Of a stretch of DNA of 30,540 bases, positions 2,575 through 8,696 are shown piece by piece (position 1 is the stretch's first letter; the number at the start of each line of letters is the position of its first letter). Under the pieces are notes generated by a model. It saw only the letters and a program-made list of their open reading frames with translations, was not told the origin of the DNA and searched no databases. Source of the stretch: a virus (lineage: Duplodnaviria > Caudoviricetes); the IMG/VR virus record IMGVR_UViG_3300028588_000068, positions 1 to 30,540 of that record; one strand, 5' to 3'. The translations under genes were made by a program, and so were the position numbers.

Positions 2575-3302
2575 CAGTTCGCCTCCGCATCGAGGAACTT
2601 CTGCCACTCGGCCCAGTCGTTCTTGATCGAGCTGATGACGAACCCAGTCGGCGAGTTCGGGGTGCCAGCGGCACGGCCGAGGATCGTCGAGACGACCCGG
2701 ACGACGTCAGTCGGCGGGAAGATGCGACCTGCGTGGCGGCCAAGGGCGGTCCTGACCTTGGTGAAGTCCACGCCAAGATTCGACAGCTGCCTCGAACACA
2801 GCTCCTCGACAGATTCCTCATCCGTCACGGCTCGCGCTTCAGTCTCTGGGACTGGAGGTATCTCGGTAACTGGTTCTACTGGGGATGGGACTGGGGATGG
2901 GGGAGGCGTTACTGACGCGTCGCTAACGCCGTTGTCACGCTGCGTGTTACGCGTTACGTCGCCGTTCTGTGATGCGGCACGGCTCTCGCGCCAGCGCTTC
3001 TGCCGGTCGGCGTTCGCCTGGCGGCGGCGCTTCTCCTCGGCCTCGTCGAGGTTGCCGGCCTGCTGCAGCCAGTCGTGGAACGCGTAACCAGTGGGGGTCT
3101 TCTCCCAGAGGCCGGCCTTCACGAGGGCGTTCGCCTGGCCGGTCGTGCCGAGCGATGCGACGACCTCGCGCGGCACGGCGCCGCCGGTGGCGTGGCTCTT
3201 GCACCAGGCGCCAGCACGCGTCCAGAGGCCGATGGCGGCGTTGCCAGCGAGGAGGGCTTTGGGATGGAAGGAGAACTGATCGTCTACGGGGAAGTAAGGC
3301 AT
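2574..3302 (-). CDS. RepA-like / lambda O-like replication initiator
   Basis: N-terminus PYFPVDDQF..HPK..AIGLW..AGAWC and LVKAGLWE..GY.FHDW, then RR.ANADRQKRWRE and a low-complexity linker. This architecture is typical of actinophage replication initiators. Confidence 0.75.
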   Translation of the reverse strand: MPYFPVDDQFSFHPKALLAGNAAIGLWTRAGAWCKSHATGGAVPREVVASLGTTGQANALVKAGLWEKTPTGYAFHDWLQQAGNLDEAEEKRRRQANADRQKRWRESRAASQNGDVTRNTQRDNGVSDASVTPPPSPVPSPVEPVTEIPPVPETEARAVTDEESVEELCSRQLSNLGVDFTKVRTALGRHAGRIFPPTDVVRVVSTILGRAAGTPNSPTGFVISSIKNDWAEWQKFLDAEAN

Positions 3303-3320
3303 GAGGCGTCCTTGCTCGGG

Positions 3321-3665
3321 TCAGGCTGGATCTGTGGTGGTGTCGCGGCCCCAGCGTTTCTGGGCTGCTTGGGGGGACTTGCCTGTCGCCGCCGCGATGG
3401 CGGGCCAGGTCTTGCCCATGGCTCGCTGTCCGTCGACGGCGTGCTGGATGGCTTCTGCGAGTACGTCGGTCATGTGGAGGAGACCGGCGAGTTCGATCTC
3501 GTCTCCGTCTGCGACGCGACGTCCGGCGGCGCGGATGAAGCGCTCGGCGGCGGCGAGGTACTTGGTCGTCTCGACCTCGTAGCGGGCTCTCTTCGATCGT
3601 CGCCTCGGGGGCTGGGCAGTTCGCTGTCCGGCCTCAACCTGAGGCTGCGGTGATTCTGCGGACAT
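3321..3665 (-). CDS. HTH DNA-binding protein
   Basis: Start at ATG 3665 (MSAESP). C-terminal GKTWPAIAAATGKSPQAAQKRW is a helix-turn-helix. Confidence 0.75.
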   Translation of the reverse strand: MSAESPQPQVEAGQRTAQPPRRRSKRARYEVETTKYLAAAERFIRAAGRRVADGDEIELAGLLHMTDVLAEAIQHAVDGQRAMGKTWPAIAAATGKSPQAAQKRWGRDTTTDPA

Positions 3666-6347: not shown

Positions 6348-6596
6348 ATGAAGTACAGCGCCTACGTCGTGAACGACGAGTTCGCACCCATCACTTCGGC
6401 ACTCAACGCACGCCGCGAAATGCTCTTCCACGAGCTCCACGACATGGCCCCGGGCCCCGAGAAGATCGACAACGCGATCAACGGATTGCTCAGCCTCATG
6501 GCAGACGTCATCGTGGCGGTCCACACCCTCGAGACCGGGATCTCCCCCAGCCTGGGTATGGAAGTCGAAGGCTTCGACGGCCCCGACGGCAAATGA
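6348..6596 (+). CDS. Hypothetical protein, counter-oriented within the early operon
   Basis: 82 aa, strong AGAAGGAG RBS, GC3-rich codons, candidate -10 TACAGT at 6285-6290. Confidence 0.75.
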   Translation: MKYSAYVVNDEFAPITSALNARREMLFHELHDMAPGPEKIDNAINGLLSLMADVIVAVHTLETGISPSLGMEVEGFDGPDGK

Positions 6597-6622
6597 CATC
6601 GGCGGGAACTCTCGGAGGAGAC

Positions 6623-6835
6623 TCAAGCGACACCGTCCTCTGAGCCTGCTGCGGGAGAAGCGAGCGCTTCGACCTCGGCGATGAGGTAGCGACGGTGCCC
6701 GGAAGGAAGCTTCACGGGGTGCAGCTTTCCCAGCGATTCAAGGCTCAACAGTGTCGAACGGCTGACGCTTAAACGAGCCTGCGCCCAGCTCGAAGTCGCC
6801 AACGCATCTTGGGTCGCAATAGTTGGTTTCTGCAT
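6623..6835 (-). CDS. Excisionase / Cro-like MerR-type HTH protein
   Basis: Start at ATG 6835. LSVSRSTL..LE..GKLHPVKLPSGHRRY..EVEAL is a winged-HTH Xis-like motif. First gene divergent from the repressor. Confidence 0.8.
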   Translation of the reverse strand: MQKPTIATQDALATSSWAQARLSVSRSTLLSLESLGKLHPVKLPSGHRRYLIAEVEALASPAAGSEDGVA

Positions 6836-6841
6836 ACGAGG

Positions 6842-6870
6842 ACCATACGACCCGGTCCAGTCGATTGCAA
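6842..6870 (-). promoter_or_regulatory. Early lytic promoter (leaderless)
   Basis: Minus strand TTGCAA-17 nt-TATGGT, then 6 nt, then the ATG of the Xis/Cro-like gene. Confidence 0.7.
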
Positions 6871-6905
6871 GCAGATTCTGCCTAATTAACCGCACAAAAC
6901 GATTC

Positions 6906-6935
6906 TGGACAAAACAACTAGTTCTGCCCTACGCT
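6906..6935 (+). promoter_or_regulatory. Repressor promoter (leaderless)
   Basis: TGGACA-18 nt-TACGCT, then 6 nt, then ATG 6942; no Shine-Dalgarno. Confidence 0.65.
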
Positions 6936-6941
6936 GCCAGC

Positions 6942-7310
6942 ATGTCGATCAACACTGCGCTGCCTGGCGAAATGGACGGACTGACCGCCGATGCGGAAGT
7001 CGGCCTGAGAGTTCACACCCTTATGTGGGAGCGACGCATGACCCAGGCGCAACTCGGAGAGAAGCTGGGGCTGTCGCAGACCGGCGTTGGCAGACGACTC
7101 CGAGGGACGAACGGCTGGTCGGTCGCAGATTTGCGGGCCACTGCCCGCGTCCTTGGCGTGACAGTTGCCTACCTCGTTGGAGAGGAAGGGGTAAATCCGA
7201 CGCCCGGCAGCGTGAAGAGTCAGCCTTCAGATTACTCAGCCGACCATCGGGCCCCCGTTGTGTCGCTCTTCAGCCGTCGCGAGCTGGCCCGCGTCGCTGC
7301 CGCGCACTGA
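6942..7310 (+). CDS. Immunity repressor (XRE HTH) with C-terminal tail ending VAAAH
   Basis: MTQAQLGEKLGLSQTGVGRRLRG..WSVADL..A.VLGVTVAYLVG is an HTH_XRE pattern. Lies upstream of and co-oriented with the integrase. Confidence 0.9.
   Translation: MSINTALPGEMDGLTADAEVGLRVHTLMWERRMTQAQLGEKLGLSQTGVGRRLRGTNGWSVADLRATARVLGVTVAYLVGEEGVNPTPGSVKSQPSDYSADHRAPVVSLFSRRELARVAAAH
7221..7242. other. Putative attP core inside the repressor gene
   Basis: CAGCCTTC-AGATTA-CTCAGCCG. CAGATTA (7228-7234) is the reverse complement of TAATCTG in the tRNA-Arg anticodon arm, and the 8-bp arm is shared with the tRNA. Confidence 0.7.
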
Positions 7311-7425
7311 CTGTTCTGCCTGTCCTCCGCGCGGTAACGATATGAGTACGCCTCACGCCAACACGCGTTGGCTATCCGTAGTTTCGACTGACCCCCACAC
7401 ACCCGATACCGGTGAGGATCAGAAC

Positions 7426-8361
7426 ATGGATGACGACGCGATACTCAGCTTCTGGGCGGCATACCAAGCCGCCGAGAGCTGCACCCCTGGCACGATAAAG
7501 GAACGCATGATCGTCGTGCGAGCCCTGCTGCGCCGCTCAGAGAAGACGCTGCTTACAGTCACGCGACACGACCTCATAGCGGACCTCGCACGCGATTTAA
7601 GCCCTAAGACAAGGCAGAACTACAAGAGCCTGTTCCACACACTGTTCGCCTGGATGCAGGACGAGAGCTTCCGCCAAGACAATCCGGCCGCCCGGCTCCC
7701 CCGCACTCGGGTGCCGAAGTCCGAACCGAACCCCGTGACGACCGAAGACATCGAGTTCTTGCTCAACAGCGGCATCTATGCCAAGACACGGATGTACGTC
7801 CTCCTCTACGCCTACCAGGGATTCAGGGCCGTGGAGATCGCAGCAGTCTCCGGAGAGACGATCGACTGGGACCGGCGCCGCATCCTCTCGAAGGACGGCA
7901 AAGGCGGCAAGGAAGTGTGGCGCCCGATCCACGACATTGTTTGGTCCGAGCTGCAGCGCTACCCCCGCGAAGGTCCGCTGTTCCCCTCCCCCGCCGGCGG
8001 GCACATCAGCCGGAAGACGGTCTCCAATGTCCTGTCGAAGGCGTTCACGCGCGCAGGCATTGATCACCGACCTCACCAACTGCGCGCCTGGCACGCAACT
8101 GAGCTGATCGAAGCCGGAGTCTCCACCCTCGTCGCGCAGCACTCGATGCGGCACTCTGACCTGCAGTCCCTGAACAGGTACGTGACCGTGTCGGAGAAGC
8201 GGCTGCGCGAGGCAATGGACATGCTGCCAGGGGTGCTCGTTCCCCTCCGCTCCGGTAGAGTCTCGGGGTCCGCCCCCGTAGCTCAGTGGATAGAGCAGCA
8301 GCCTTCTAATCTGTCGGTCGCGAGTTCGAGTCTCGCCGGGGGCACCTCCGCTGCAGCTTGA
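7426..8361 (+). CDS. int: Tyrosine integrase (small, no evident N-terminal arm-binding domain)
   Basis: Catalytic residues: R (GFRAVE), K (GKGGK), HxxR (HQLR), H (MRHSD), Y (RYV). ATG 7426 has a GAGGA RBS (alternative start 7342). Ends GGTSAAA. Confidence 0.92.
   Translation: MDDDAILSFWAAYQAAESCTPGTIKERMIVVRALLRRSEKTLLTVTRHDLIADLARDLSPKTRQNYKSLFHTLFAWMQDESFRQDNPAARLPRTRVPKSEPNPVTTEDIEFLLNSGIYAKTRMYVLLYAYQGFRAVEIAAVSGETIDWDRRRILSKDGKGGKEVWRPIHDIVWSELQRYPREGPLFPSPAGGHISRKTVSNVLSKAFTRAGIDHRPHQLRAWHATELIEAGVSTLVAQHSMRHSDLQSLNRYVTVSEKRLREAMDMLPGVLVPLRSGRVSGSAPVAQWIEQQPSNLSVASSSLAGGTSAAA
8272..8344 (+). tRNA. tRNA-Arg(TCT), complete, nested in the integrase ORF
   Basis: Cloverleaf: acceptor GCCCCCG/CGGGGGC, D-arm GCTC-AGTGGATA-GAGC, anticodon loop CT-TCT-AA (anticodon 8305-8307), T-arm GCGAG-TTCGAGT-CTCGC, discriminator A. 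CCA is not encoded. Confidence 0.95.
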
Positions 8362-8386: not shown

Positions 8387-8417
8387 CCTGCCTGCGGGCG
8401 GCTCCTAGGCTGGCAGC

Positions 8418-8696
8418 ATGTCGGATCGCCCTCAGAACCCATCCCTCGCCCGCGTCTTCGACAAGGCCATCCGCTCCGGCCACGAGATCCGCCACGCCGA
8501 TGAGACGCAGGTCGTCACCTTCCACAAGCCCCGCATGGGCTGCCTCGGGTTCTTCTTCGTGCTCACCCTCGTCATCATCAGCCTCGGGCTGGTGCTCGTG
8601 CTCGGCATCCTCAGCCTCGGCCGCAACTCGGGCGTCATCACCACCTACACGCTGAAGCCGAACGGCAAGATCAAGCGCCGCGAGAAGCGCGTCTGA
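8418..8696 (+). CDS. Accessory membrane protein
   Basis: 92 aa with a long hydrophobic segment (GCLGFFFVLTLVIISLGLVLVLGILSL). Candidate -10 TAGGCT 6 nt before the ATG. Confidence 0.8.
   Translation: MSDRPQNPSLARVFDKAIRSGHEIRHADETQVVTFHKPRMGCLGFFFVLTLVIISLGLVLVLGILSLGRNSGVITTYTLKPNGKIKRREKRV

Follow-up and report, generated by a model that had tools for sequence, protein, structure and literature searches.

A phage cassette with an attachment site in its repressor gene and a tRNA-Arg(TCT) in its integrase gene: a probable immunity switch that replaces the host tRNA it splits

Layout of the repressor-integrase region

The DNA analysed here, hereafter the window, is a virus record of 30,540 bases that represents a free phage form and carries portal and tape-measure genes. 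The nearest named relatives of its integrase come from Leucobacter, Microterricola, Herbiconiux, Microbacterium and phage Min1, and because of these origins the host probably belongs to the Microbacteriaceae. A cassette of about 1.4 kb combines an insertion site in the phage's own repressor gene with a spare arginine tRNA in its integrase gene. The features of the region are as follows.

6623..6895, minus strand: divergent small HTH gene, cro/excisionase-like, start uncertain; Pfam MerR (E=2.6e-5) and HTH_17 (E=0.003), both under the cut-off
6942..7310, plus strand: repressor, viral form of 122 aa ending RVAAAH; Pfam HTH_3 (E=1e-6)
7195..7228, minus strand: P' arm of attP, which would join the host tRNA 5' half and is unable to complete a tRNA
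7229..7234, plus strand: attP common core AGATTA, read as TAATCT on the tRNA strand, where it starts at the last anticodon base
7426..8361, plus strand: tyrosine integrase, 311 aa, ending SAAA; Pfam PF00589 (E=1e-19)
8256..8261, plus strand: predicted -10 box TAGAGT of the tRNA promoter, in the integrase codons G-R-V
8272..8346, plus strand: intact tRNA-Arg(TCT) (ARAGORN; Rfam 67.2 bits; stems 4/5, 5/5 and 7/7)

The attP core lies inside the repressor ORF, upstream of the co-oriented integrase gene, and the divergent HTH gene occupies a place that corresponds to that of the cro gene in the BPs-type switch as described in PMC3694055. The repressor matches the immunity repressor of Gordonia phage Dogfish at 42.5%. 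Its predicted prophage form has 97 aa and ends in QPSD, the truncation point being computed for the window and seen in relatives. The catalytic residues of the integrase are intact at the conserved columns (R134, K159, H217, R220, H243 and Y252). Its frame passes in frame through the whole tRNA gene with its last codons. This tRNA is the sole one of the window and lies on the same strand as the integrase, inside its 3' end. A copy of the core is present in the phage tRNA at 8307-8312, inverted relative to attP; the 6-mer AGATTA occurs at these two places and nowhere else in the window.

Two further elements were observed nearby. A 20-nt direct repeat (90%) at 6928-6947 and 8404-8423 spans the starts of the repressor gene and of the gene after the integrase, and a 13-nt inverted copy of it lies within the integrase gene at 8218-8230; the copies could possibly be operators or shared start regions. 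An 82-aa ORF without a Pfam match (6348-6596, plus strand) lies between the cro-like gene and the leftward early genes.

The attachment site and natural lysogens

The original prediction described an attP on the minus strand at 7197-7234, and the letters that it quoted and its coordinates were both right. An integrated relative (L060), whose integrase is 88% identical to that of the window, bears out the assignment: its sequence changes from host tRNA 3' half to phage exactly at AGATTA, and past the crossover it reads the same six letters as the window. Nine attL junctions of relatives change over at the same core, and the crossover was seen at junctions in L060, L018, L020, L022, L023, L027 and L067. 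The 7-bp match in that prediction is to the phage's own tRNA; against host loci the match is most often 6 bp. The run shared by attP and 20 host tRNA-Arg(TCT) loci was 5-8 bp in 18 of them and 2 or 4 bp in the other two; left of the core, attP shares nothing with these loci.

Beyond the core, the arm had been read as a decayed tRNA 3' half that keeps the T-loop TTC in register and a GCCGGG stretch, having lost the pairing of the T-stem and acceptor stem. The TTC does sit in T-loop register, and GCCGGG proved to be out of register. The loss of pairing was confirmed in the predicted attL formed with two host 5' halves, which retained 1/5 T-stem and 2/7 acceptor pairs, as compared with 5/5 and 7/7 in eight intact host tRNAs. 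The further claim that attP cannot rebuild the target tRNA also stood, since ARAGORN called 0 of 19 predicted hybrids at the default or the relaxed threshold, and in a control it called all 20 host tRNA-Arg(TCT) genes.

The decayed 3' half itself is not significant in the window alone, and the relic is real at the level of the family. When 4000 random window stretches served as the null, the window arm beyond its first 8 nt gave p=0.38 (gapped) and p=0.80 (ungapped) against tRNA 3' halves. Those first 8 nt (7221-7228) repeat the tRNA arm before the core in inverted orientation without a mismatch (8/8) and match the 3' side of the tRNA at only 4/8; the inverted copy is likely to be an integrase-binding half-site. 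A repeat finder gave no convincing arm-type sites around attP. In the family, TTC was found in T-loop register in 11 of 17 arms, which are not independent of each other and also encode repressor, against a background of 1.2%. This excess supports the descent of the family arms from a tRNA 3' half.

To our survey of natural lysogens belonged 401 genomes in the family of G001 (L001, Leucobacter chromiisoli), searched at an integrase cut-off of E<=1e-50; the window's own contig (L059) was left out of all counts, and L051, L052 and L055 duplicate L018, L019 and L002. The integrase was present in 11 of the genomes and had a tRNA-Arg(TCT) right behind it in seven. The same seven genomes carry a host tRNA 3' half upstream of the integrase, joined to phage sequence at GATTA. 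The corresponding tRNA 5' half was found 16-39 kb from the integrase locus in 7/7 (on another contig in G001), and in each case it runs into a repressor-like frame that closes with D-stop. The same attL arrangement was present in two proviruses among the five virus records searched, which brings the attL total to nine. In all seven genomes and in the two proviruses, the split in the host tRNA-Arg(TCT) falls at the core, and at 9/9 attL junctions a new TAG, formed with host letters, truncates the repressor-like frame, these frames being judged HTH-like by eye.

The split leaves little of the host tRNA at attL. ARAGORN called no tRNA at the nine natural attL sites, and at the relaxed threshold it called two of the seven genome attL sites. 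Only that of G001 passed Rfam (33.1 bits against a threshold of 29, and 67.2 for the window tRNA). Over the nine sites, 1-3 of 5 T-stem pairs and 1-4 of 7 acceptor pairs were present. When the 5' part from attL and the 3' part from attR were joined in silico, a tRNA-Arg(TCT) was obtained in 7/7 genomes; the rebuilt host tRNA was identical to the prophage copy at 57-65 of 73 nt (8-16 differences). The outer flanks were chromosomal in the five genomes examined, with genes that include msrA, ssb and those for an RNase_T-family exonuclease, an M1 peptidase and alanine racemase, and an antirepressor lies inside the junctions of G249.

The attL arm of G053 closely resembles that of the window and encodes the same QPSD end. 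The host contig of G053 breaks off precisely at the final base of the core, which would be expected were excised and integrated forms to coexist there. The window phage itself was seen in the free form only, in contigs of seven runs, with no lysogen, junction or host of its own: one contig (X1) runs without a break across attP (6400 to 8144), and at the core the matches listed show neither a joint nor a loose end of host origin. Runs with a small share of the phage are uninformative on its habitat and expression. Genus-level searches and searches with relatives gave no new lysogens, and scans of viral contigs with single proteins (the window integrase and P0053) gave no match.

The remaining four integrase genomes have neither an att site nor a tRNA near the integrase, which lacks the alanine tail. 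Three of them keep one intact host gene, and G282 had no pattern match. L024, L025, L026 and L028 are close integrase homologs (45-55%) that also have no alanine tail and no att site or tRNA nearby; they lie apparently within small operons and are apparently another kind of element. In L018 (1100-1300, from G384) and L060 (925-1165), tandem extra host tRNA 3' halves lie beside attR, each with one letter of the core changed; they are perhaps scars of repeated integration.

The phage tRNA, the host tRNA and AGA codons

The original prediction had called for a check of the copy number of the host tRNA-Arg(TCT). A 5'-half pattern matched 334 of the 401 family genomes, of which, by our own tally, 320 had one match and 14 had more, and the gene is thus single in 320/334. 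Seven of the 14 are the lysogens. The other seven have two matches, which are two intact or contig-end copies, and no integrase was found in seven loci tested. With a second pattern, running from the anticodon loop to the T-loop, the prophage tRNA was the sole exact match in 5/5 lysogens, three of which are single-contig genomes.

By the wobble rules, AGA is read by the UCU anticodon alone; tRNA-Arg(CCT), which is present in some of these lysogen hosts, cannot read it. AGA is very rare, with 35 occurrences in 73,501 codons and in 27 of 219 genes in a 400-kb sample of G249. The rpoB, rpoC, elongation-factor and ribosomal-protein genes of G249 (rpoB to secY, named by eye) have no AGA past codon 40. 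We also surveyed AGA in fetched division-cluster and origin regions, where 46 of 126 frames contained the codon and 33 were scanned. In 5/5 lysogens examined, AGA lies inside family-matched stretches of ftsW, murE, murC, murG, murF, mraY or dnaA, namely ftsW (G249, G384 and G257), murE (G384 and G257), mraY (G257 and G169), murF (G257 and G066), and murC, murG and dnaA (G066). Genes of this type are essential in bacteria generally. A literature search on the essentiality of tRNA-Arg(TCT) yielded nothing. Given the single copy number, the wobble rules and the presence of AGA in essential genes, the phage tRNA is likely to be required in the lysogen.

Because integration separates the integrase gene from the repressor promoter, the phage tRNA would need a promoter of its own. 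A TANNNT motif starts 15-17 nt before the tRNA in 23/23 phage tRNAs; it is found within 14-18 nt of 15/17 host tRNAs, and the window background is 0.25% per 5-nt span. In most of the phage cases, the window among them, the motif is within the integrase tail, and in same-strand cases it overlaps the last codons or the stop of the integrase gene. A strict TTGACA/TATAAT sigma-70 scan found no promoter at the window tRNA. In two RNA runs no contig covered the tRNA (8272..8346), which speaks neither for nor against its expression.

Read-through of the tRNA by the integrase frame occurs in 10 of 120 homologs and in Min1, and all 10 still end in Ala. In most relatives the integrase stops before the tRNA, and in some the tRNA lies on the opposite strand. 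An alanine end is general in the family, as 117/120 homologs end in Ala and 114/120 in AA or VA; the SAAA end of the window integrase fits this pattern and could be an ssrA-like C-terminal tag. The repressor tails of relatives end in AA, SA, GA, AG, KA or VS. Since the window repressor ends in AAAH and not in AA, its tag would be atypical. The idea that phage tRNAs avoid their own core was not supported, because 7 of 20 carry it against a mean of 8.4 in shuffled sets, so the core is neither favoured nor avoided. Some phage tRNA-Arg(TCT) genes (L020:2371-2445, L061:867-941 and L062:3348-3421) have the anticodon loop TCTAC, without the core, and for this reason could not be targets of the integrase; the loop of some hosts (L093) is of this form as well.

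Proposed switch, rival explanations and related systems

We think it likely that the cassette is an integration-dependent immunity switch in which integration destroys the single tRNA-Arg(TCT) of the host and the phage tRNA replaces it. By analogy with BPs, the viral repressor and the integrase would be unstable owing to alanine-rich C-terminal tags. The integrase would then carry out recombination between the 6-bp core, within the repressor gene, and the host tRNA-Arg(TCT) at its anticodon loop, as seen at the junctions of relatives. The host letters would supply a TAG, as they do in relatives, and the repressor would lose its tail (from 122 to 97 aa in the window), which might stabilise it. 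The host tRNA would be left as two halves, again as in relatives, the phage arm rebuilding neither the T-arm nor the acceptor stem. The phage tRNA, with a promoter of its own within the integrase tail, would go on being transcribed after integration and would read AGA, a codon beyond the reach of every other tRNA. A single recombination would thus turn immunity on and also leave the cell dependent on the prophage tRNA for as long as the host gene has not been restored by excision. A broader version, in which a widespread 1.4-kb hostage cassette decides between lysis and lysogeny in that one recombination and has a nested tRNA that also sets the integrase dose through processing of the message, or that is the internal target of an inversion truncating the repressor, seems to us rather doubtful.

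One could envision that the host tRNA is split but is dispensable, or is partly replaced, and that the phage tRNA merely improves lysogen fitness or lytic growth. Streptomyces bldA is an example of such a tRNA. The near absence of AGA from highly expressed core genes, its presence in only 27 of 219 sampled genes and the weak tRNA score retained by the G001 attL would all fit such a scenario, as would the text of PMC13072593, which describes the AGA codon as rare and possibly regulatory. We consider this explanation unlikely, because AGA lies within essential cell-wall, division and replication genes in every lysogen examined for it, the tRNA-Arg(CCT) of some hosts cannot read the codon, and none of the nine attL cases was a split-tRNA lysogen without a spare. 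A lytic need is also poorly indicated by the window phage genes, which use AGA sparingly (12 in 6,708 codons). A further scenario is that the nested tRNA is chiefly a regulator, either because its processing cuts the repressor-integrase message, leaving it without a stop and the integrase destroyed, or because inversion of the 1.08 kb between attP and the tRNA truncates the repressor. The read-through with a conserved terminal Ala in the 10 homologs, together with that in Min1, is in keeping with this scenario, and so is the restriction of the 6-bp core to attP and, inverted, the phage tRNA. However, nesting is evidently not needed, because most relatives end the integrase before the tRNA and some carry the tRNA on the opposite strand. 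No inversion joint was present among the contig matches listed, although contigs drop rare forms, and phage tRNAs show no preference for or against their own core. A regulatory role of this kind is highly improbable as the main function and would add to complementation rather than replace it.

Finally, the window phage might integrate elsewhere, or no longer integrate, its attP resemblance and its tRNA being leftovers. This would account for the observation of the free form alone and for a relic that is not significant in the window by itself, and Min1 has been reported in a plasmid (PMC7302621, as described there). Against it stand the intact catalytic residues, the intact tRNA and -10 box, the relative with an 88% identical integrase (L060) that is integrated at the same core, and the attL arm of G053, which is closely like that of the window and has the same QPSD end. 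We regard the leftover scenario as barely conceivable and return to a switch in which the phage tRNA replaces that of the host.

Both mechanisms joined in this switch are already known. Integration-dependent immunity, as described for BPs, Brujita and Charlie and for clusters G, I, N and P (PMC3694055, PMC4557955), shares with the window family the cro/repressor/integrase order, an attP in the repressor gene, truncation of the repressor on integration and an integrase ending in alanine. The window integrase is 35% identical to that of the cluster P phage BigNuz. Unlike the window, BigNuz retains a tRNA 3' half inside its repressor gene and carries no tRNA next to its integrase gene. The window differs from the BPs-type systems in its 6-bp core, in that the host tRNA is not rebuilt, in its added phage tRNA and in a repressor that ends in AAAH.

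tRNA-dependent lysogeny is known, from the account in PMC10865867, in Fionnbharth (K4), in clusters L, K6 and X, and in the Gordonia clusters CQ2/DL. These systems have in common with the window family a short core in the anticodon loop, a host tRNA that is not rebuilt, a phage tRNA of the same isotype with its own promoter, and sister phages that have a full core and lack a tRNA. Their targets in Table 2 of that paper are Lys-TTT, Ile2-CAT and Leu-CAA, with no Arg-TCT. Their integrases are described as lambda-like with arm-type domains, whereas that of the window is of the 311-aa BPs type with PF00589 as its sole match, and only the window has its attP in the repressor gene and its tRNA and -10 box in the integrase tail on the same strand. 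Those systems have a proven dependence on the tRNA, which in the window family we infer.

The text of PMC10865867 treats integration-dependent immunity as a separate system, and a 2025 review (PMC12582341) gives the two as separate examples. A partial precedent for combining them is the tandem prophage prophiT36-2a/2b of Mycobacterium abscessus (PMC9934374), in which an integration-dependent immunity prophage impairs the host tRNA at attL; its authors speculate that the tRNA-Thr of the tandem partner, a prophage with the same kind of immunity, complements it in trans. As reported there, the core is 40 bp, the acceptor has two mismatches, and the tRNA-Thr is absent from other cluster members. 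The window family differs in having an in-cis, fixed cassette across many prophages and a fully split tRNA. We found no description of such an in-cis cassette in the literature (main texts, mostly open-access), and the joining of the two mechanisms in one cassette appears to be new. The original prediction of tRNA replacement combined with integration-dependent immunity in less than 1.5 kb is supported, in that both halves hold in natural lysogens of the same integrase family. Two mechanisms that PMC10865867 and PMC12582341 present as separate would here form one cassette, and its integrase family, tRNA isotype and host family are absent from the 2024 table (PMC10865867).

Several relatives lack the phage tRNA or the decayed arm. 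In four phage-form loci (L049, L050, L063 and L185) the repressor gene still contains a complete tRNA 3' half, and their arms rebuild the tRNA with 17/19 hosts. In the fetched flanks of L049, L050 and L185 there is no tRNA behind the integrase; the sequence of L063 ends too early. In an integrase tree of 38 rows, L048, L049, L050 and L063 form one clade, and L185 is on a long, unsure branch. Because three of the four loci belong to one clade, the tRNA-less contrast amounts to about two lineages. The tree also splits tRNA loci with a known broken arm from those whose arm is unknown, and its change counts are no test of co-evolution. L065 has a tRNA together with a nearly intact 3' half, 7 of its 19 hybrids being called by ARAGORN. 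L048, L056, L069 and L071 lack both a tRNA and a readable att site, and L068 ends inside its tRNA. When the tRNA 3'-half pattern was run on viral contigs (120 loci, about a tenth of the collection), two integrase loci were found, L185 and L136, the latter being the same contig as L050. As judged from these arms, the family presents a graded series: a full half without a tRNA, a nearly intact half with a tRNA, a T-loop relic and a fully decayed arm. The text of PMC10865867 leaves open whether the phage tRNA preceded the short core or followed it. The series bears on this question, and L065 would fit a tRNA-first order, in an unrooted series in which no order of events was tested.

At a more distant locus, in G792 (L239:1190-2435), an integrase (36%) that ends in RRAA has a tRNA-Val(TAC) right behind it and an apparent tRNA-Val 3' half 311 nt upstream. 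The locus is probably the same design with another isotype; an attL was looked for in G792 and not found.

Cultured relatives carry the cassette as well. Min1 has the same layout as the window, with a related integrase (59%) and an unannotated tRNA; it was entered with 0 tRNAs in Table 1 of PMC7302621, and its integration has been reported into a plasmid (PMC7302621, PMC9030533). In the Min1 record (L002:3000-3150), the homology to the integrase is divided between two frames near codon 50 and a shorter protein is annotated, which may reflect a frameshift or a sequencing error. Five Arthrobacter cluster FF phages were examined (QuinnAvery, Nandita, Elesar, Popper and Gusanita; integrase 43-44%). 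In these phages the core is translated as Asp-Tyr within the frame of a repressor-like gene, the arm is decayed, and the related integrase is followed by a tRNA-Arg(TCT). Unlike the window, they carry the tRNA on the opposite strand and have extra genes between the repressor and integrase genes. The repressor-like genes of Min1 and the FF phages end in alanine or AG. Elesar is reported to have a single integrase (PMC13097055), and this is the one related to that of the window. QuinnAvery lysogens exist in Arthrobacter globiformis B-2979, and the FF reports, in the text of PMC13097055 and PMC12821334, leave the integration site and the working integrase open. In the literature covered, the cassette design does not appear to have been described as such for Min1 or the FF phages. 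The switch makes a concrete prediction for these cultured FF phages, in which the requirement for the tRNA could be tested, and integration vectors derived from them should need the tRNA.

The FF annotations of the gene that contains the core disagree. In Popper (L300:616-1059, 3241-3486), the gene with the core and the alanine tail is annotated as Cro, and another gene is annotated as the immunity repressor; its counterpart in QuinnAvery is annotated as the immunity repressor.
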